The notes below the pieces were generated by a model, which had not been told where the DNA came from, ran no database searches, and was given only the letters and a program-made list of their open reading frames with translations. The translations under genes were made by a program, and so were the position numbers. 43,753 nucleotides of DNA, from the NCBI GenBank assembly GCA_964605215.1, contig CAZSBD010000001.1, positions 1 to 43,753 of the forward strand, given 5' to 3'. Positions 18,597 to 27,441 of this stretch are shown here, in pieces. The DNA comes from an uncultured Oscillospiraceae bacterium. GTDB taxonomy: Bacteria > Bacillota > Clostridia > Oscillospirales > Butyricicoccaceae. Position 1 is the first letter of the stretch. Each line of letters begins with the position of its first letter.

Positions 18597-21500
18597 TTAC
18601 TGCTTGCTGATTACATCGCCGGGGCTGGTGGAAGAGTTGTTGGTTGCCCATTCCCTCTCCAAAGCTGCCCAATCCCGGATTGACAGTTCCTCGGTCCAGG
18701 TTTCCTCGGTCTTATCTGTGTCCCAGGTATAATCGTGAGAATTGGTGGCTTCCTGCATACCTGCGTAATACCACTTAGCGGTATTCTGGTTGTCCGGCCA
18801 TGTGATCATATCCTCGTCGCTCAGAAGCTTGCCCACAACCGGCTTGCGGCCAATGGTGTTATTGACAATGGTTACAGCTTCTGCACGGGTGATGTTGTTG
18901 TTGGGACGGAAGGTGCCATCGGTATAACCATCGACCAGACCGATGTCTGCTGCCGCCTTGATATATTCCTCTGCCCAGTTGCCGTCAATATCGCTGAAGA
19001 AATTGTCCTTACCGTCATAAGTAGAATGGAAGAAACTTACAGCCATTTTGACAAATTCCGCTCTGGTGATGCTCTGATCTGGCTTGAAGGTCCCATCGGT
19101 ATAGCCATTGATGATGCCCATCTTGCTCAGAGTAGAGATGGCGTGGTTGAACCAACGGTCAGCGGAGACATCGCTGTAATTGTTGGTCTGTGCCCAGTTT
19201 GCGCTCCGGCTGTCATCGGTCAGCAGGCGGAAGAAGATGGTTGCCACTTCCGCTCTGGTGATCTCCGCTTCCGGATGTACCAGACCATCGTCCCGGCCGA
19301 TAATGTAAGCGTAATGGTTTACCGTATCCAGATCGGAAGGCGTGGAAGGCGTGCTGCCTCCGCCGCCACCACCGCCACCACCGCCGGTGTGGTCGGAGGA
19401 ATAGGTGCGATAGTAATCCACATAGATAATGTTATTTTCCGCACCGCCTGCAGCTACTGTCAGCTGGATCGGGGTATCTACGGTGTTATTGGCATAATCC
19501 TTACCCAGATACTTATAAGTATTGCTCTTATATCCAGAGGTTGCGTCTGGCAGATAAGAGATTTCCTCTCCTGCTGCTGCGGAAATTGCGGAGCCTTGCT
19601 TAACCGTATCGGTCAGGGAACCATTGGTATAATACCGGTAAACGATCTGGTAAGCGCTTTCTTCCTTATCTGTACCGTCACCAGAAATGTCACGCTGATA
19701 AATCAGAGTGATGATATTCTGGGCCGGGTCTACAACAGTCTTGATAGACGGAGTAGAGCCATTTTCCTGATAAATATAAGAAATGCCGTTCAGGGATGCA
19801 TAAATCGCAGGATCAACTGTTACTGTTTCGCCAACACCCGCTGAAATCTTATCGCCGGTTACCGTGCCGTCCAGCTCAAAGTCACCCTCTTCGGTCCACT
19901 TAGTGTAGTACTCACGGACGATCTGATAGGTTGTTGTTGCCGGCGCACCGGTAATCTCGTAAGAAACGGTAGGCTTGTTAAACGCCTCCGGGAGGCCATC
20001 ATAACCATCGCTGTCTACCGGATACAGGACTGCGCTGTTGTTGGTGTACAGCCCTGCCAGCTTCTGGCTGCCATCCTCATCGTATTGGCCATAGGTACCG
20101 TTTGCCTGCTGGGGATTGGTCAGCTTGACGGTGTAGGTCAGCTGAACCGGAGCAAAATTACTTACAGGAACGTTGATATTCCAAACAAAATGCTCTGTAT
20201 CCTGCTTATTACCCTCAACATAGGTCAGTGTATAAGCATAGGAACCGTCATCCAGCTTGTTGAAACCATATGTATTTGCATCCATAACCTCTGCTTTGTA
20301 TTCTGTATCACCAACCTTCATAGTCAGAGCGTTGGCATCATTTATAAAATCAAAGTTATAACCGTTCTCACCATCTGTATAGCCCATATAGTCTTCAACC
20401 TTGGAACCAGCAGCCAGCAGATAATAAATATCCTTCTGAATCTGCGCAAAGCTTACTTCCTGACCGTTTGCCAGATAAGACATAAAGGAAGGACCGAACG
20501 GATAGGTGTTCATTTCTGATTCCACGCCAGAGCATACTGCATAGGTGTGATACTTTTCAGCCAATGCCTGATATGCCTGATATGATTTGTACAGCGCAAT
20601 ATCTACAGTAGAAGCGTACTCGTCCTTTTCGCTATAGGCAACGAAGGGCTTGTCAGCGGTAGCGTTGTCGCCGCGCTCATAGAGGCTTGCTTTTTCCGTT
20701 ATCGTTTTCTCCATCAGCTCCTGGATGGATGTCAGTTCTGTTGCCCAACTTTCGGGAACATAGCCATTGCCGTGCTTTACATCCCAGCCATCGGGACCGG
20801 CCAGCATCGGTGTGTTTGGTGTATCTCCATTTGCGAAGTTCACGCCATAGTTTTCTTGCTTTTCGGTTTCGTCATCATCCCAGATATAAGTGATCCCATC
20901 GCTGACTAAAATAACATATTTACGGTCATCGGCAACCTGAGTATCAGCCTCCAGCATCTTTTTTGCTGCCAACAAACCTGCGTTCATATTGGAACCGCCA
21001 GTTTCCGGACGCTCACTCATAAATGTTGTCACAACTGTTTTGGTATCCTCTGTTAATTCTGTCAATGGCAACTGGGTCACTTCACCACGGAACTGTACTG
21101 CGCCGACTTTAATCTTAGCGTCAGTATTGTCAATCTGCTGATACAACTGACCCAGCATGTTGCTAACATCATCCTTTACCGGCTGGCTGCAGCTGGATTC
21201 ATCCAGTACAAATACAAGATCAGAGGTAAGCTCTTCTTCTGCTGCTGGCAGAGACAGGGTTACCTTGGATTCGTAGTTGGAATCCAAATTGGTTGCGGTC
21301 TTGGACTTGGAAGTTGTCCAGTTCGGCCTATCCGGATCATCCGGATCTACCGGCTTTAAGCCATGGGCTGCCTTGAGGGCGATTGCCTCAGAAATCTGAC
21401 CTGCACCAGTTTCTGAATCAAAATCTGTGTACTCCTCTGCATGATAAGGCTTCTGACCGTGTGCCTTCCAACGGTTATCTTTTGTATCGTCATACCAACC

Positions 21501-22805
21501 ATCAATAGCATCTTCGCAGTCCGGCGCGCCGTCCAGCGCCCAGCCTGTGCCAACCTTGCCAAAGGTGATGGTGCCGGTGCTGGTGTTGTAAATGTCATCA
21601 CCAGCGGTGCCTGCGTGGTTGTTGTAGAGAACTACGTTATTTGCGATAGCTGCGTTAGCTTTATTATAAATTCCGCCACCGTAAGATTTTGTGGTGTTTT
21701 CTGTAATAGAGCCTGCCTTCATATTTAGCTTGTATGCATTATAAATGCCGCCGTCTTTATTGTTATGGATTTCAACATGTGCGCCATTTTCAATGGTGAC
21801 ATCTCCATACCAATAATTTGAGCCGGAATACACCCATAAGCCAGAACCAGCGTTGCCATTCAGAATTACGTTTGCGCCAGATGCAATCGTTCCTTCGCCA
21901 CCAACTGTGAGACCCGCTGCTGCATTGCTGCAGGCACTTATAGTAGAAGTACTATCTAAAGATAATTCTTTTACAAAAATACCCCAACTAGAGCCTTTGT
22001 TGTTATCCGCTTTAACTGTAGAACCATTTTCTACAGTCAGCTTACCATAGTAGCAGCCTAGACCGCCGCCATAGTCCGGATTGCCGTTTCCGGTTAAATC
22101 CACGGTAGAATAATCCTTTACTGTTACATTAATCGGATTGATCGTCATGCCGTGCCAGTCACAATCGCTGATTGTCAGTGTAGAAGCGCCGTCAATTACA
22201 ATATTTCGGTTTGGTTGACCAGCATATTCCGAGTTATCTGCATAGATGCCACTTGAACGTTCCTCGTTGAATTCAGATATGTTGATTTTTGAACCATTCT
22301 GAATGTATAGATTACTCTCCTGATACAGATAAATGCCACTTGCTTTTTGGTTATGATCGCTTTTCAGTGTCATTTCCGTGCCATTGAAGGTCAAATCAGT
22401 ATTAGAAATCAGATTAGCGGTAGCACCACTCTCCGAGGGATTGCTGCTAATCACCATATTGATTTTGCAATCCTTAAAAGTAAGCTTGCTTTTCACCGCA
22501 CAAATACCTGCTGTTAGGAATGAAATTGTCGGCTTTGCCTCTGCATTTCCTTGAATTGTCAAGTCTTTCTCCTCGATGGATAAACCATTTGACGTGCAGT
22601 CCGCCAGCAGTTCAATGGTAGCGCCGTCTGTTGCCGCTTCCATGGCTTCGTCCAGCGTTTGATACTTTGTGCTATCAATTTGAGCCACGTATTCAGGCTG
22701 CTGCCCGCTGTCACCCGTTGGCTCCTCTGCCGCAGCGGGGAATGCCATGGCCGTTACCAGCATTGCCGCCGTCAGCAGAGTTGCCAATAGTCGTTTCTTT
22801 AACAT
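18597..22805 (-). CDS. giant cell-surface protein: signal peptide, beta-helix (Pmp-like) repeats, vWA domain, repeat modules, Gly10 linker and three SLH domains
   Basis: Signal peptide MLKKRLLATLLTAAMLVTAMAFPAAAEE. Gly/Asn-rich GGGIYN-type repeats fill the first ~450 aa. vWA/MIDAS-like motifs are present (LVFVLDESSCS...GGSNMNAG...ILVSDGITY). Two modules begin YQIVREYYT / YQIVYRYYT. The C-terminus has three SLH repeats (for example FSDIDGNWAEEYIKAAADIGLVDGYTDGTFRP). GGAG lies upstream of the ATG. Confidence 0.85.
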   Translation of the reverse strand: MLKKRLLATLLTAAMLVTAMAFPAAAEEPTGDSGQQPEYVAQIDSTKYQTLDEAMEAATDGATIELLADCTSNGLSIEEKDLTIQGNAEAKPTISFLTAGICAVKSKLTFKDCKINMVISSNPSESGATANLISNTDLTFNGTEMTLKSDHNQKASGIYLYQESNLYIQNGSKINISEFNEERSSGIYADNSEYAGQPNRNIVIDGASTLTISDCDWHGMTINPINVTVKDYSTVDLTGNGNPDYGGGLGCYYGKLTVENGSTVKADNNKGSSWGIFVKELSLDSTSTISACSNAAAGLTVGGEGTIASGANVILNGNAGSGLWVYSGSNYWYGDVTIENGAHVEIHNNKDGGIYNAYKLNMKAGSITENTTKSYGGGIYNKANAAIANNVVLYNNHAGTAGDDIYNTSTGTITFGKVGTGWALDGAPDCEDAIDGWYDDTKDNRWKAHGQKPYHAEEYTDFDSETGAGQISEAIALKAAHGLKPVDPDDPDRPNWTTSKSKTATNLDSNYESKVTLSLPAAEEELTSDLVFVLDESSCSQPVKDDVSNMLGQLYQQIDNTDAKIKVGAVQFRGEVTQLPLTELTEDTKTVVTTFMSERPETGGSNMNAGLLAAKKMLEADTQVADDRKYVILVSDGITYIWDDDETEKQENYGVNFANGDTPNTPMLAGPDGWDVKHGNGYVPESWATELTSIQELMEKTITEKASLYERGDNATADKPFVAYSEKDEYASTVDIALYKSYQAYQALAEKYHTYAVCSGVESEMNTYPFGPSFMSYLANGQEVSFAQIQKDIYYLLAAGSKVEDYMGYTDGENGYNFDFINDANALTMKVGDTEYKAEVMDANTYGFNKLDDGSYAYTLTYVEGNKQDTEHFVWNINVPVSNFAPVQLTYTVKLTNPQQANGTYGQYDEDGSQKLAGLYTNNSAVLYPVDSDGYDGLPEAFNKPTVSYEITGAPATTTYQIVREYYTKWTEEGDFELDGTVTGDKISAGVGETVTVDPAIYASLNGISYIYQENGSTPSIKTVVDPAQNIITLIYQRDISGDGTDKEESAYQIVYRYYTNGSLTDTVKQGSAISAAAGEEISYLPDATSGYKSNTYKYLGKDYANNTVDTPIQLTVAAGGAENNIIYVDYYRTYSSDHTGGGGGGGGGGSTPSTPSDLDTVNHYAYIIGRDDGLVHPEAEITRAEVATIFFRLLTDDSRSANWAQTNNYSDVSADRWFNHAISTLSKMGIINGYTDGTFKPDQSITRAEFVKMAVSFFHSTYDGKDNFFSDIDGNWAEEYIKAAADIGLVDGYTDGTFRPNNNITRAEAVTIVNNTIGRKPVVGKLLSDEDMITWPDNQNTAKWYYAGMQEATNSHDYTWDTDKTEETWTEELSIRDWAALEREWATNNSSTSPGDVISKQ

Positions 22806-22844
22806 TTTTTCTTCTCCTCATTTATTCTTTTTCGATGTTGCTTC

Positions 22845-24029
22845 CTACATGTATTTTTTATCTCCCTCCTTTTTCGCCTTGCCCAACGGAACAATCGTCT
22901 GCCCGGCGTTCCCTTGTTCCGCCAGGATCGTCCGATATCGCGCCTGATATCCGGCCTTACTCCTCCCGGCACAAACCGGGCATCCGCATTTCTGCGGCCC
23001 GGTTCTGGATTGAATCACCGCTTGCCAGACATGGCCCTCGGGGCACTGCCACCATACCTTTCGGTGGCTGCCCATGGTCACCATGTCCGGCGTTAGCGTC
23101 CCGTTCAGCATGGGATGCCACTGGGCAGCCACCTTTGGTTCCCGTGTTGCCAGATCATTGAAACCCGCTAATGCTTTTCGTCCCGCGCAATACGGACAGC
23201 CGGAGCCTTTTTCTGTCCTTGCCCCTACGCTGGCCGTATAGTCATGCCCAAGCGGACAGCGCCACCAGACCTTGCGGCTGCTGGACGGAGAAACCATGTC
23301 CGGGGACAAACTGCCGTTTCTTGCGGGATGCCACTGGGCGGCGATGACCGGAAAATGGGTGGCAAGGTCATTTTCTCCGGCAACAATCATTTTTCCGGCG
23401 CAAACGGGACAGCCCGCCCCGTTGCTGGCCCGGGAGACAATGGATGCTTGCCATTCGTGACCCTTGCCGCAGCGCCACCAGACTTTTCTGTGCGTCCCAG
23501 CTACAACATCTCCGGGCGTCAATTTCCCGTTTTTTGCGGGATGCCACTGGGCGGCCAGTTCGGGATGGGTTGTCGCCAAGTCGTTTTCACCAGGTAAAAG
23601 CACCCGGTTGGTACACACGGGACAGCCGCAGCCGTTGGCGCGGGATTTCACCGCAGCCTGCCACACATGGCCTTTCTCGCAAATCCACCATGCTTTATGG
23701 TGGCTGCCTATGGTCACCATGTCCGGCGTTACGCCGCCGTTTTTGGACGGATGCCACTGAGCTGCAAGATCCGGCATCTGAGAGGCGACATCATTTTCAC
23801 CGGAATATGCCCGCTTTCCCGCGCAATATGGACAGCCGGAGCCGACGCCCGTGCGGGTGTAAACCGCTGCTTGCCATTCGTGGCCCTTGCCGCAGCGCCA
23901 CCAGACTTTCCGCTTGCTGCCATAGGAAATGGTTTGAGGCGTCAGCGGGGCATTTTTAGTTGGATGCCATTGTTGAAGCAAAGCGGCCTTTCCTTGTTCC
24001 ACGCAGTAATCAGATAACAATATTCTCAA
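22845..24029 (-). CDS. protein made of five ~71-aa zinc-ribbon (C-H-C-C) repeats; function unknown
   Basis: The unit WHPxKNGxLTPxxVxxGSxRKVWWRCxKGHEWQAxVxSRxxxxxGCPxCAG is repeated five times. The preferred start is TTG at 24029, 5 nt after GGTGGTG. The longer ORF to 24128 has no RBS and begins inside the invertible segment. There is no signal peptide from the preferred start. The resemblance to the DUF4379 'probable zinc-ribbon' family is from memory. Confidence 0.7.
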   Translation of the reverse strand: MRILLSDYCVEQGKAALLQQWHPTKNAPLTPQTISYGSKRKVWWRCGKGHEWQAAVYTRTGVGSGCPYCAGKRAYSGENDVASQMPDLAAQWHPSKNGGVTPDMVTIGSHHKAWWICEKGHVWQAAVKSRANGCGCPVCTNRVLLPGENDLATTHPELAAQWHPAKNGKLTPGDVVAGTHRKVWWRCGKGHEWQASIVSRASNGAGCPVCAGKMIVAGENDLATHFPVIAAQWHPARNGSLSPDMVSPSSSRKVWWRCPLGHDYTASVGARTEKGSGCPYCAGRKALAGFNDLATREPKVAAQWHPMLNGTLTPDMVTMGSHRKVWWQCPEGHVWQAVIQSRTGPQKCGCPVCAGRSKAGYQARYRTILAEQGNAGQTIVPLGKAKKEGDKKYM

Positions 24030-24079
24030 ATATTCACCACCGCCTTTCGCTGCACGGACACTCCCAACGGCTGTCAACA

Positions 24080-24094
24080 GAATCAATATTCCGT
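24080..24094. repeat. left inverted repeat (IRL) of the candidate invertible segment
   Basis: gaatcaatattccgt is the exact reverse complement of 24331-24345. Extended outward to 24077, the match is 17/18. Confidence 0.85.
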
Positions 24095-24140
24095 ATACGT
24101 TTCCCCGCCATGGCATTTGCAAACCCAAGTCTTTAGAGCC

Positions 24141-24185
24141 AAAAAAAAATGCGGCCTTTTACCCTTGTCAGCAGTAAAAGGCCGC
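24141..24185 (-). terminator. rho-independent terminator inside the invertible segment (functional on the minus strand in the present orientation)
   Basis: A 12-bp stem GCGGCCTTTTAC (24151-24162) pairs with GTAAAAGGCCGC (24174-24185). On the minus strand it is followed by T9 (plus-strand A-run 24141-24149). A second, weaker hairpin AGCCGCA/TGCGGCT lies at 24195-24222. Confidence 0.75.
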
Positions 24186-24253
24186 AAAAAAAGAAGCCGC
24201 AAAAAAGTGATTTTCTGCGGCTGAGTTTTCACGCCCAAAATATGGGAACCATA

Positions 24254-24282
24254 TTGCATATCAGAAGAAAATATGGTATCAT
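24254..24282 (+). promoter_or_regulatory. sigma-A-type promoter inside the invertible segment, currently firing rightward (away from the zinc-ribbon/SLH operon)
   Basis: TTGCAT (24254-24259), a 17-nt spacer, then an extended -10 TGgTATCAT with the -10 at 24277-24282. No comparably good promoter is seen on the opposite strand of the segment. Confidence 0.6.
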
Positions 24283-24330
24283 TTATTTGTAATATGTAAT
24301 CGCAAAGATTTATTACGCGGCTTTTTTGCG

Positions 24331-24345
24331 ACGGAATATTGATTC
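24331..24345. repeat. right inverted repeat (IRR) of the candidate invertible segment
   Basis: acggaatattgattc ends 6 nt from the recombinase stop codon (24352-24354). Confidence 0.85.
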
Positions 24346-24351
24346 CGTGTA

Positions 24352-25197
24352 CTACGAGACAAAGCCCAAACGGTCAAGCTGTTTGATATGCTCCTTCCCG
24401 GTGGTCAACAGATAAATTCTTGTAGTTTCAATGGAAGAATGCCCCAGCACATCGGCCAGCCGCGCAATATCCTTACAGGTTTTATAAAACGCTCTGGCAA
24501 ACAGGTGGCGCAGGTTGTGCGGGAACACCTTAGACGGTTCTACGTTTGCGTATTTGCATAGCCCTTTCATTTCCGCCCAAATCTGGCGGCGCGACAGGCT
24601 TTTTCCGCTTCTGGTGAGAAAAATCTCACCGGAAGCGATTTTTTGCTTTTTGGCGTATTTTTCCAGCTTGCGGCGCAGCTTGTTTGGCAGCAAGATCGTG
24701 CGGATTTTGCCCTTCAGAGAGATTTCCACCCGGCTCCGCCGCACCGCTTCCACGGTGATATATTTTACCTCGCTCACCCGGATGCCTGTAGCGCAGATGG
24801 TTTCCATTACCAGAGCCAGCCGGCTCTGTCCTCGCTCCTTGGCCTCTGCCACCAAACTGTCATACTCCTGTCTGGTCAGTTCCCTGGACTGCTCCCGGAA
24901 CAGCCGCTTTTGAACCTTGAGAAATTTCACACGGCAATCCTCCCAGCCAAGAAAACGGAATAAACCGTTGAGAGCGGCTATCATGGCGTTAATCGTGGAG
25001 GAGGCGTACTGCTGAGATAAAAGGGATTCCTTCCACTGGGTAACAACCTCTTTTGTAACAGCTCTGCCCTCCAGCCATGTGAAAAAGGCCCGCACATCCC
25101 GCAGGTATTTTTCAACCGTGGCAGCGGCCTGCTCCTCCGCTTGCAGATGATGGCTGTAGGCGGCAATCTGTGCCGCTGACAATACGTGCTTAGACAT
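24352..25197 (-). CDS. stand-alone tyrosine site-specific recombinase (XerC/D / phage-integrase family)
   Basis: ATG at 25197 lies 6 nt after GGGAGG. It has an N-terminal SAM-like domain (TVEKYLRDVRAFFTWL) and catalytic-domain signatures (ATGIRVSEV, HNLRHLFA, LGHSSIETTRIY with the terminal Tyr). Confidence 0.9.
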   Translation of the reverse strand: MSKHVLSAAQIAAYSHHLQAEEQAAATVEKYLRDVRAFFTWLEGRAVTKEVVTQWKESLLSQQYASSTINAMIAALNGLFRFLGWEDCRVKFLKVQKRLFREQSRELTRQEYDSLVAEAKERGQSRLALVMETICATGIRVSEVKYITVEAVRRSRVEISLKGKIRTILLPNKLRRKLEKYAKKQKIASGEIFLTRSGKSLSRRQIWAEMKGLCKYANVEPSKVFPHNLRHLFARAFYKTCKDIARLADVLGHSSIETTRIYLLTTGKEHIKQLDRLGFVS

Positions 25198-25217
25198 AAA
25201 AAAACCTCCCAATTCAA

Positions 25218-25245
25218 GTAATACCAGTATTTTGTCTTGTCCAAA
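25218..25245 (-). promoter_or_regulatory. possible extended -10 promoter of the recombinase gene
   Basis: The minus strand reads TTTGGA, a 16-nt spacer, then TGgTATTAC, ~20 nt upstream of the RBS. The -35 element is weak. Confidence 0.3.
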
Positions 25246-25503
25246 ATATTCTATTCATAAAAAATGCTCCGCGCCGTCCTTATCCTTGGACAACGCGGGG
25301 CTGAAAAATCTGTTCCAAGTGGAAACCCCTTATTTTGCGCGGAAAACCGATCTGCCAACAAAGGGGCGCTCTTGACAGCGATGATACCGATGCCTTCCTC
25401 TCCCTTTTTTCATGTTTACTTGCCGTTACCTTTGCGATACCTCTCAAGAAGACGGAATTCCCCCTGTTTTCTTCTCCCGGATTTTGATTTTCATCGGAAA
25501 GTC

Positions 25504-25539
25504 AAATCGCCTGAATCCACAAAAGGATTCAGGCGATTT
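25504..25539. terminator. 15-bp-stem hairpin terminator (bidirectional context)
   Basis: Stem AAATCGCCTGAATCC (25504-25518) pairs with GGATTCAGGCGATTT (25525-25539). The tail is gTTTTa on the plus strand. It lies 4 nt after the stop of the minus-strand membrane-protein gene. Confidence 0.7.
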
Positions 25540-25542
25540 GTT

Positions 25543-27441
25543 TTATGACTCCAATATTTTAACCGATTCAAATGTCTCATCCGAAACCTGAGATTCCGTC
25601 TCTTCCTGTGCCTGGGTTTTTACCGCCTTCTCCGGCTCCTGGCCCTCCCGGGCAATGGAATCCGCAGACAGAATGCTGCCTTCCGCCGGGCTATAGGTGA
25701 TAGTCACCCGGTCGCCGGTGTTGAGGATCACCGCTAAGGGATACTCTCTGGCGTTGATGGTGTAATACGCATCGCCGCCCTCCAGCCGGAAGAAGAAGAA
25801 GGTATCGCCGTTCATATTGGCAGACCGGATCTCTGTAATGGCACCGGTGACGCTCTGGCTTGCCTCAGTACCGCTGGACTTGCCTGTGCCGTCATCATCA
25901 ATCAGCTTATTTTTGATGAGCATCGTATGATAATTGTCCTGGCAGTCCTCTACCGTGCTGCCAGTGGCTACAATCTGATACTGCTGTACGTTGACCATAG
26001 CATACATCTTGACCAAGCCGCCGTCATCCTTCAAAGCCATAAAATACGTGGGCTGATCGGAAATATTCAGCAGCAGGGGGAAGGTAGCGCTGTACTTATA
26101 CTGCTGCACGGCGCCTTCCGCAGATTCCATAGCGGAGAACTCCTCCGCGCCGGCACAGGAATAATACTTGGATTCCTTGGTACGCTGGTTGACCAGGATG
26201 AAGCCGATATTACCCCGGTCACCGGTAATGGAGGTGACGCCGGTATACAGCCAAACATCATCGTTCTGGGCAATATAGTTATAGCCGGTGGTGGTGGCGG
26301 TACAGCCACTCTGGCCGAAAAGGGAGTTCCAAAAACCGTTGTGATATTTGCCGTAGTAGTTATACTGCTCAATCACCAGGGAAGCGGAGTTGACCCGATC
26401 CACCCAGGTGGGCACGTCAGCCACATCGTAATACTGGCTTTCGCCGGTGACCGCGTTTAAAATCACGGCTCCCTTGACATCCGCGCCGCCGAACAGGCCG
26501 ATGGTCTTATCAATTACAGAGGCCACCCAATAGGGGGTTCCGTTCTCAAAATTCACATCGTTGAACATTTTGGTCGGATAATGCAGGCGGAGGTAACGGT
26601 TCAGATCCCGGTTCAGGTATTCTGAAGGGGAAATGCGGATGCCCTGATCCAGACGGGCTACCTTGACGTCCTGGGTCACCATATCCACAATCATATAGGC
26701 GGGAATGCCTTCCCTCTGGTTGGCAAACCACTTAAAAATATTGCCGTAATTCAAGTACGTCACCCGCACCGGCTTGCCCTTATAGTTGATCTGAGCGGTG
26801 GAGGTGCTGACGGTGAACTGGGAAACCAGATCGGAAAGCTCGCCCAGCTTTCGGTTGGTCAGCTTGTTGGCGGAATCCTCGTCCAGCATGGGGATCTGGT
26901 CAAAGGAAATTTCCGCCACTTCCTCTGTAAAATCTCCCGTCTCCGTTTTCAGCAGGGAGGAATACGCCTGGGTGCGAAAGATCACCAAGCCGGATACCAC
27001 GCCGATAGCCACCACAATCACCATAGCGATCAGGATGAAAAAGGGAACTCGCAGATTTTTTTTCGTATAAGCCAGATATTCCCCTGGGGTCTCCGCCCGG
27101 AAGCCGTTTAACACGATCCTGCTCACGCTGTAAACCAGGCACAGCCAGAACAGGAACCAGTAGGTTTCCGGCGCATGAATATTGATGGGGGGAATTTCCA
27201 CATAAAAATAAATGGCGCCAAAAATCAGGGTAATCAGCAGGCTTTTTATCAGCCGGCTGGCCGGTGTGCCCTTGGGAGGCTTTGACTCTCTTTTGGGCCG
27301 GGGAGAACCGCCGGAGCTTTGACCGCCGCCAAAGGGATTTTGCCCTCCGTCAAAAGCTCCCTGACCGAAACCGCCTTGGCCAAAGCCGCCCATATTGCCC
27401 ATAGGATTAAAAAACATTTGTAGGATTTTCTGAAATGACAT
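25543..27441 (-). CDS. membrane protein of unknown function: Gly-rich N-terminus, ~3 TM segments and a large extracytoplasmic domain
   Basis: ATG at 27441 lies 6 nt after AAAGGAG, giving 632 aa. The N-terminus is MSFQKILQMFFNPMGNMGGFGQGGFGQGAFDGGQNPFGGGQ. Hydrophobic segments include LLITLIFGAIYFYV, YWFLFWLCLVYSV and FFILIAMVIVVAIGVVSGLVIF. I do not recognise a family. Confidence 0.7.
   Translation of the reverse strand: MSFQKILQMFFNPMGNMGGFGQGGFGQGAFDGGQNPFGGGQSSGGSPRPKRESKPPKGTPASRLIKSLLITLIFGAIYFYVEIPPINIHAPETYWFLFWLCLVYSVSRIVLNGFRAETPGEYLAYTKKNLRVPFFILIAMVIVVAIGVVSGLVIFRTQAYSSLLKTETGDFTEEVAEISFDQIPMLDEDSANKLTNRKLGELSDLVSQFTVSTSTAQINYKGKPVRVTYLNYGNIFKWFANQREGIPAYMIVDMVTQDVKVARLDQGIRISPSEYLNRDLNRYLRLHYPTKMFNDVNFENGTPYWVASVIDKTIGLFGGADVKGAVILNAVTGESQYYDVADVPTWVDRVNSASLVIEQYNYYGKYHNGFWNSLFGQSGCTATTTGYNYIAQNDDVWLYTGVTSITGDRGNIGFILVNQRTKESKYYSCAGAEEFSAMESAEGAVQQYKYSATFPLLLNISDQPTYFMALKDDGGLVKMYAMVNVQQYQIVATGSTVEDCQDNYHTMLIKNKLIDDDGTGKSSGTEASQSVTGAITEIRSANMNGDTFFFFRLEGGDAYYTINAREYPLAVILNTGDRVTITYSPAEGSILSADSIAREGQEPEKAVKTQAQEETESQVSDETFESVKILES

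Follow-up and report, generated by a model that had tools for sequence, protein, structure and literature searches.

A probable phase-variation switch for a surface-protein operon in an uncultured Oscillospiraceae bacterium, and the recombinase-linked family to which it belongs

Background

Recombination sites such as those of the Cre/loxP, Flp/FRT and Xer/dif systems are composed of inverted half-sites placed round an asymmetric overlap, and the relative orientation of two such sites dictates whether the DNA between them is inverted or deleted. Among the enzymes which operate regulatory switches, Mpi of Bacteroides is a serine recombinase acting globally, and RecV of Clostridioides difficile is encoded elsewhere and serves several switches. 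In the case of the C. difficile gene cwpV, the promoter lies outside the invertible region, the OFF state arises through the formation of a terminator in the leader, and the ON state is that of a minority, about 5% (PMC2784873). In Escherichia coli, fimE expression is described as dependent on the orientation of the switch, through a Rho-dependent terminator located in fimS (Hinde et al. 2005, as cited in PMC12360218). The locus considered here is found in a stretch of 43,753 nucleotides from an uncultured Oscillospiraceae bacterium (contig CAZSBD010000001.1, positions 1 to 43,753; hereafter the window), where a 236-bp segment enclosed by an inverted repeat (IR) separates a tyrosine recombinase gene from an operon encoding an SLH-anchored surface protein. 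It is very probably a phase-variation switch for that operon. Its mechanism is of a type already known. The locus is one member of a large family, hardly characterised so far, of which both orientations occur in nature.

A class of comparable elements has been catalogued in a study of the hCom2 defined gut community (PMC11892184, Microbiome 2025). The sections of that report which deal with inverton group 139 link it statistically to invertase group 35, an adjacent tyrosine recombinase, and list 33 invertons, 32 of them from Clostridia, in 17 strains, nearly all with a nearby tyrosine recombinase (PMC11892184). Their interiors measure 206-228 bp and their IRs 13-25 bp, and an Oscillospiraceae member, Intestinimonas butyriciproducens, is included (PMC11892184). 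In the same sections, flipping of group 139 is reported at read level during passaging and on mucin carriers, and the authors conclude that, in general, inverton promoters do not regulate the invertases near them (PMC11892184).

Results

Recombination sites and invertible segment

The IR is formed by two arms of 18 nt each which enclose 236 nt and match at 17/18 positions (94% complementary). The cargo-side arm, IRL, occupies 24077-24094 (ACAGAATCAATATTCCGT) and reads ACAGAAT-CAAT-ATTCCGT, that is, outer half-site, asymmetric spacer and inner half-site; the recombinase-side arm, IRR, occupies 24331-24348 (ACGGAATATTGATTCCGT) and reads ACGGAAT-ATTG-ATTCCGT. A first-pass annotation, made from the letters of the sequence, had described a perfect 15-bp repeat extending outward to 17/18, and both arms were located as described, with the perfect core at 24080-24094 and 24331-24345. 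Its distance of 6 nt between IRR and the stop codon of the recombinase gene is true of the 15-bp arm, the full 18-bp arm ending 3 nt short of that codon. The IR is real and not a chance repeat: with up to 3 mismatches allowed (<=3), the 18-mer occurs in the 43.7-kb window just at the two arm sites, against a chance expectation of 0.04, and two matches were obtained in 0/100 shuffles. Neither a target-site duplication nor further copies of the arms were found in the window, and a comparison of 22700-25600 with Rfam families gave no match, the only weak ones falling on an unrelated hairpin near 25500.

Each arm is itself a near-palindrome, ACRGAAT-CAAT-ATTCCGT, the centre of which is reversed in the other arm. 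Judged by this layout, each arm is a full tyrosine-recombinase core site, with two inverted half-sites round an asymmetric spacer. Since the spacers are oppositely oriented in the two arms, inversion and not deletion is predicted.

The invertible segment proper (24095-24330, 236 bp) contains two terminators and, back to back with them, a promoter. The predicted promoter is of the extended -10 type and is found on the plus strand at 24254-24282, with TTGCAT (24254-24259), a 17-nt spacer and TGgTATCAT ending at 24282. The end of its -10 element is 48 nt from the arm which it faces and, at present, the promoter is directed toward the recombinase gene, so that the cargo is OFF. It had been presented as the best promoter of the segment; the sequence is as then given, and its lead is marginal, a rival on the minus strand scoring 9 vs 9.5. 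A generic consensus scan omits it because the -35 element agrees at only 3/6 positions, and positional conservation was therefore used instead. By this measure, the putative switch promoter is singled out by a position which is conserved across the recombinase family.

Both predicted intrinsic terminators are on the minus strand and act in the recombinase-to-operon direction. Terminator 1 (24185-24222) has a 12-bp stem (24222-24195) followed by TCTTTTTTTG, and terminator 2 (24141-24186) has a 13-bp stem (24150-24162 with 24174-24186) followed by T9 at 24149-24141; the two fold together at -42.2 kcal/mol (z = -5.25). The first-pass annotation had correctly seen the hairpin with T9, counted its stem as 12 bp instead of 13, and missed the other terminator just upstream.

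The locus has the parts expected of a promoter inverton: short IRs flank a short non-coding segment placed 47 nt upstream of the start of the DUF4379 gene, the adjoining recombinase has an intact predicted active site, and the predicted internal promoter faces the regulated gene in one orientation only. The arrangement is not that of a cwpV-type switch with an external promoter, as the conserved predicted promoter is inside the segment; orientation-specific terminators are nonetheless present.

Conservation of the layout in homologous loci

The survey covered 80 species-representative loci, 80 metagenome loci and sets of contigs encoding the same recombinase protein. Overall, a recombinase gene, an IR-flanked segment of ~200-290 bp and a co-directional cargo gene follow one another in ~110 homologous loci of Oscillospiraceae and Lachnospiraceae. 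Whether the IR is kept in homologous loci had been proposed as a check of the switch, and it is: in 56/76 usable species-representative loci, the IR begins -2 to 26 nt past the end of the recombinase match, and the partner arm mostly lies 200-290 bp beyond the first. In most loci, a co-directional open reading frame (ORF) is found within ~60 nt of the distal arm.

The spacers were tabulated for 59 loci, including the window and three additional contig loci. All but one (58/59) have an asymmetric spacer between inverted half-sites, and the spacer is the same in both arms in 54/59. Spacers vary by species (CAAC, TAAC, CTAT, TCAT, GATG, TTGTTG and others), with an asymmetric centre of 4-6 nt, and this covariation between arms is of the kind which would be expected of a crossover region.

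The promoter shared by the family, TTGnnn-17-TGnTAnnnT, keeps a distance of 31-59 nt (mode 43-48) between the end of its -10 element and the arm which it faces. The positional rule allowed 46/60 loci to be classified, in comparison with ~6/60 after shuffling (about 3 ON and 3 OFF). Among the species representatives, 35 were OFF (window included), 11 ON and 14 unclear, and the metagenome contigs comprised 35 OFF and 4 ON. The window promoter has the majority, recombinase-facing orientation, and the OFF call of the first-pass annotation therefore fits.

Natural inversions

A comparison of segment orientation in related genomes had also been suggested, and it revealed exact inversions among the homologues. 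Between L025 (a Lawsonibacter metagenome-assembled genome, OFF) and L153 (a human-gut contig, ON), the segments are identical as reverse complements at 225/225 positions, the flanks are identical in the same direction (recombinase 840/840 nt, downstream 400/400), and the site core, GAATCAATATTC, is that of the window. In these two loci (L025:3840-4110 vs L153:2340-2610), a single-nucleotide polymorphism of the inner half-site (ATTCTG vs ATTCCG) moves with the segment, and the outer half-site and spacer stay put, which places the strand exchange in or next to the spacer. Similarly, L107 and L116, which encode the same recombinase protein (P0064), match at 236/236 positions as reverse complements between flanks of 317/317 and 80/80; the OFF state is seen in eight sister contigs and the ON state in L116, where the promoter faces the gene of a 1356-aa Flg_new/SLH protein. 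L177 corresponds to L183 and L184 at 232/232 positions as reverse complement, L029 and L031 give an inverted match of 234/243, and independent assemblies are divided 8 to 11 between the two directions of one Oscillibacter-type switch.

Several contigs end at the proximal IR (L012, L037, L065, L114, L136, L142, L147, L151, L162 and L185), typically within ~20-60 nt past the recombinase stop codon, either inside the proximal arm or directly beyond it, and an N-gap interrupts one scaffold there. Breaks at this place would be expected where a sample holds both orientations. L142 ends in an adaptor-like sequence (CTGTCTCTTATACAC).

A more elaborate arrangement is present in the species encoding P0095/P0114, where the core site occurs a third time, flanking a 32-bp cassette with a terminator hairpin (L001-L010, 5847-6200; L093-L096, 3847-4200). 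Some of these loci have the cassette beside the recombinase gene, some have it at the distal end of the switch in inverted form, and others lack it; passing from one placement to the other needs two inversions at core sites. The pattern of these three-site loci implies nested inversions, with up to four predicted states. The mini-cassette is clearly a terminator only in the P0095/P0114 species (L002-type), and not in L026, L047 and L051. The L093 scaffold has an N-gap where the cassette would sit. Separately, the loop of an internal terminator hairpin in L008 (5960-6010) is inverted with respect to nine sister contigs: between arms CAAGCCGC and GCGGCTTG of the stem, it reads AAAGGTCAAATTTTT vs AAAAATTTGACCTTT in the sisters. 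Either a micro-inversion mediated by the hairpin or an error of assembly may account for this.

As an intact and typical member of a demonstrably active family, the window locus would be expected to invert as well.

A putative antisense terminator inside the recombinase gene

A further hairpin with a 14-bp stem (24606-24637), followed by ATTTTTTGCTTTTTGG, is found on the plus strand at 24606-24653, inside the recombinase ORF and antisense to it, ~250 nt from the stop codon. When 60 recombinase ORFs were scanned strictly, an antisense terminator was returned in 15/60 and a sense one in 0/60, and 10/15 of the antisense terminators sit 247-265 nt from the stop codon. In an alignment of 61 loci, 81.6% of the helix cells are paired, against 43-47% with the register slid; both sides have changed in 12/14 pairs, and the observed covariation was reached by 0/500 shuffles. 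A terminator-like antisense site is present in 41/61 loci. The pairing survives in L025 despite a change of two amino acids, GAG/CTC having become GCA/TGC on the two sides.

The ratio of G.U to A.C (133 to 20) was considered as proof of the strand on which the hairpin acts and was dropped, since slid controls, which range from 1:1 to 4.2:1, show that the excess is partly compositional. A synonymous-codon test was therefore used in its place, comparing the seven codons which form the antisense T-run with the rest of the recombinase gene. AAA accounts for 93/124 (75%) of the Lys codons in the T-run and 223/626 (36%) elsewhere, and CAA for 32/38 (84%) of the Gln codons in the T-run and 58/304 (19%) elsewhere; the corresponding Fisher p values (~5e-16 and ~2e-15) are overstated because the loci are phylogenetically related.

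As the OFF-state switch promoter is the only conserved source of plus-strand transcription, a discrete antisense RNA is the simplest reading. The hairpin probably terminates an RNA started by the OFF-state promoter and, in that case, the OFF state is probably not silent, driving antisense RNA into the recombinase gene. The product would be an RNA of ~360 nt, from roughly 24289 to 24645, which would cover the last ~250 nt of the recombinase ORF. Through it, the level of recombinase and the bias of switching would come to depend on the orientation of the switch. The arrangement suggests orientation-dependent control of the recombinase, with a logic like the orientational control of fimE, and such control would fit the OFF bias observed among assemblies.

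Cargo operon

The operon which the switch would control is on the minus strand. Its first gene (22845-24029) encodes a cytoplasmic protein of 394 aa, counted from the TTG at 24029, which is preceded by the ribosome-binding site GGTGGTG, and comprises five DUF4379 treble-clef zinc-ribbon repeats. The second (18597-22805) encodes a secreted, cell-wall-anchored protein of 1402 aa with a signal peptide, VWA and SLH domains. The first-pass annotation had placed the SLH gene 39 nt past the zinc-ribbon gene with no terminator between, and the gap is indeed 39 nt, with no terminator-like site found in it. Recombinase and operon are co-directional, and the only terminators between them are the segment's own pair. 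After a flip, the promoter would be separated from the DUF4379 start by ~48 nt, the IR and ~47 nt, in agreement with the ~50 nt estimated earlier for the last interval.

DUF4379 is encoded by the first gene after the switch in 11 other loci, and also in L011 (6153-6761). In the window, L011 and 10 other loci, multi-repeat DUF4379 proteins without signal peptide are the first to follow the switch, preceding a large surface protein. Among 98 downstream ORFs, the domains recorded were DUF4379 (12), LRR_5 (8), SLH (4), Flg_new (4) and VWA (3); judged by these matches, the cargo is diverse and often surface-associated. In L107 (2652-3527) and L097 (2642-3517), the first gene after the switch encodes ~280-293 aa, and a first cargo ORF of this size is also found in L014, L015, L020, L024, L027, L040, L043, L051 and L064. 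Phage_int_SAM_1 matches occur in 9/98 downstream ORFs, pooled over loci, and Phage_integrase was reached in 4. The first cargo proteins of ~280-293 aa may be a degenerate recombinase-like accessory or regulator.

Recombinase gene and its relatives

The stand-alone tyrosine recombinase gene beside the repeat, already recognised as such in the first reading, occupies 24352-25197 on the minus strand and encodes an Xer-like two-domain enzyme of 281 aa, with Pfam matches to Phage_integrase and Phage_int_SAM_1. The catalytic residues R140, K164, H227, R230, H253 and Y262 are all present in an alignment to the XerA structure 4a8e. The protein does not group with the FimB/FimE type: the NCBIfam models PRK09870 and PRK09871 gave 28.6 and 21.2 bits vs cut-offs of 221 and 222, and its 281 aa with Phage_int_SAM_1 contrast with ~200 aa and no N-terminal SAM-like domain in that type. 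The Xer models were not reached either (XerA 141.7 vs 220, XerD 127.8 vs 329.6, XerC 109.3 vs 335, XerS 81.3 vs 267). By these scores, the recombinase is Xer-like in fold and domain order only and falls below every named NCBIfam cut-off.

The recombinase family counts >8000 database proteins at E <= 1e-20, of which the best 120 are 70-75% identical, and the sole member given an organism by its source is assigned to Oscillibacter. The window recombinase forms a cluster with a single member, other matches being at most 75% identical, and a search of the collections for the exact protein, in the 281-aa and 286-aa forms given by its two possible starts, yielded no contig besides its own.

Multiple paralogous recombinase genes are encoded in the same genome in the pairs L028/L069, L047/L066, L042/L079, L078/L083, L029/L091, L031/L071, L058/L070, L055/L062, L086/L089 and L021/L088. 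The spacers of same-genome paralogs differ where both loci have a detectable IR; none was detected for L028 and L089. This pattern suggests that each switch has a recombinase of its own, and that no master invertase serves them all.

Upstream of the window recombinase, a 669-aa gene has no Pfam or NCBIfam match. At its 3' end, a perfect hairpin with a 16-bp stem and a T-rich run is found at 25503-25540, and its Rfam matches are weak and at chance level.

Discussion

The core sites, the fixed promoter distance and the exact inversions in homologues support the earlier reading of the locus as an ON/OFF switch of a surface-protein operon. In the proposed mechanism, dimers of the Xer-like recombinase would bind the two 18-bp core sites, synapse them and exchange strands within the asymmetric central spacer, and the 236-bp segment would invert, the spacers being oppositely oriented. 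In the OFF state, the sigma-A-type extended -10 promoter would point into the 3' end of the recombinase gene and both terminators of the segment would stop read-through from that gene; with this promoter orientation and these terminators, the DUF4379-SLH/VWA operon is proposed not to be transcribed from here. In the ON state, the promoter would fire toward the DUF4379/SLH operon and, as the terminators would then face the wrong way, both the switch promoter and recombinase read-through are proposed to enter it.

The terminators could also be seen as the working part of the switch, as in cwpV, which works by terminators (PMC2784873): transcripts begun at the recombinase promoter would then read through into the operon, the role of inversion being to insert or remove the terminators. 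Two strong terminators lie inside the segment in the recombinase-to-operon direction, and recombinase and operon are co-directional with no additional terminator between them. This alternative is nonetheless unlikely, since the most conserved internal feature of the family is the extended -10 promoter at its fixed distance from the IR (the 46/60 vs ~6/60 given above), and terminators opposing the promoter are found in just 27/46 loci. The two mechanisms are not mutually exclusive, and both probably contribute.

More doubtful still is a frozen or relic switch, descended from an invertible one, fixed in the OFF orientation and no longer inverting. A single orientation is available for the window species, and some relatives are all OFF (14/14 assemblies of the P0095/P0114 species and 10/10 of P0029), but assemblies show the majority orientation only, and a uniform OFF leaves room for a flipped minority. 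Moreover, the locus shows no decay: the arms match at 17/18 and do not differ in their inner half-sites or spacer, no catalytic residue is missing from the recombinase, whose ORF is intact, and the promoter, terminators and antisense terminator are all intact. That the IR is no recombination substrate at all but a chance match, a long-range RNA stem in the 3' UTR of the recombinase gene or the leader of the operon, a pair of protein operators or the termini of a miniature mobile element is scarcely credible: short IRs are common in AT-rich intergenic DNA and each arm may form a small RNA hairpin, but the chance expectation of 0.04, the half-site/spacer/half-site layout with between-arm spacer covariation, the tethering of the pair to the recombinase stop codon, the lack of additional window copies, target-site duplication or Rfam match and, above all, the physical inversion of the DNA between homologous arms in relatives contradict it.

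The reading of the locus as a promoter switch with an antisense output has points against it, which are gathered here. Taken alone, the window promoter is mediocre, with its 3/6 match at -35 and its close minus-strand rival. A terminator opposes the promoter in the 27/46 classified loci just mentioned, so that the back-to-back design is common and not universal. The flipped junction of the window was sought as AATCAATATTCCGTCGCAAAAAAGCCGCG and had 0 matches in the metagenome contigs; as no collection contains a >75% homologue and the window species is present once in them, this negative carries no weight either way. In the flipped state, the left junction would read GAATCAATATTCCGT followed by CGCAAAAAAGCCGCG. 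The antisense terminator is lacking in 20/61 loci, mostly distant ones, the G.U excess is in part compositional, the codon p values are inflated by common descent, and the antisense argument as a whole rests on sequence only.

Taken in full, the proposal is of a self-regulating switch with two outputs, in which the OFF state would yield an antisense RNA of ~360 nt over the 3' third of the recombinase gene, ended by a terminator which evolution would have built into the ORF by means of a covarying hairpin and synonymous A-rich codons, the orientation would set the level of recombinase and produce the OFF bias, and the same design would extend to thousands of modules and to four-state variants. 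It is advanced tentatively, with confidence a little short of even. If true, thousands of modules in Oscillospiraceae and Lachnospiraceae of the gut, with several often present in one genome, would share this switch-recombinase design. In the embedded antisense terminator there is a concrete candidate route for orientation-dependent self-regulation of the recombinase, and this terminator and the three-site variants are the parts most deserving of experimental attention.

If the window locus flips, a 1402-aa SLH-anchored VWA surface protein and its zinc-ribbon partner would be switchable within a clonal population of an uncultured Oscillospiraceae-type bacterium, with a bearing on adhesion, phage and immune evasion, and strain-level variation in metagenomes and metatranscriptomes. 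Furthermore, the grammar of the family (from the stop codon of the recombinase gene through a core site, a ~230-bp segment in which the promoter position is fixed and a second core site to the cargo) could serve the annotation of phase-variable surface genes across gut Clostridia and could explain recurrent assembly breaks.

Comparison with known systems

The nearest system in both layout and logic is fimE-fimS-fimA. The locus shares with the E. coli fimS system the order of recombinase, invertible promoter segment and co-directional surface-structure operon, as well as a tyrosine recombinase, an internal promoter and the direction of that promoter, which faces the recombinase gene when OFF (PMC8777976). 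The two differ in their sites, which are full core sites of 18-25 bp here and 9-bp repeats in fim, in the length of the segment (236 bp vs 314 bp) and in the enzymes, with one dedicated Xer-like two-domain recombinase of 281 aa here and two, FimB and FimE, there. The control of the recombinase would also differ, with a proposed ORF-embedded intrinsic antisense terminator in place of the Rho-dependent termination of the sense mRNA of fimE. Moreover, the host is of the Gram-positive type, within Clostridia, and the cargo is an SLH-anchored protein.

With cwpV of C. difficile, the locus has in common a Clostridia host, a large phase-variable cell-wall protein as cargo and a tyrosine recombinase which inverts a segment of ~200 bp between inverted repeats. 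Unlike RecV, judged by layout, the window recombinase adjoins its switch, with no other copy of the site in the window, and several paralogous modules with differing spacers occur per genome.

The arms share the half-site and asymmetric-centre layout of loxP, FRT and dif, with shorter half-sites (6-9 bp), and the role proposed here is regulatory inversion, in contrast to the excision, integration or dimer resolution performed by Cre, Flp and Xer. The invertons of Bacteroides (Mpi and Tsr-type invertases) are alike in that they belong to gut commensals and invert promoters upstream of surface-structure genes; their IR motifs, promoter type and phylum are all different.

The first-pass annotation had not recognised the locus as a described one; its class, in so far as it can be compared with the relevant sections of the hCom2 report, was probably described in 2025 as inverton group 139 (PMC11892184). 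The window has the Clostridia host, the adjoining tyrosine recombinase (described distance within 5 kb), an interior of 236 bp (described range ~200-230 bp) and an 18-bp IR, and its family is probably of the group 139 class, a match made by description and not by IR motif. The site architecture, promoter geometry and invertase regulation given here go beyond what those sections contain on the group (PMC11892184). As to the general conclusion that nearby invertases are not regulated by inverton promoters, the putative antisense terminator argues otherwise for the recombinase family of the window.

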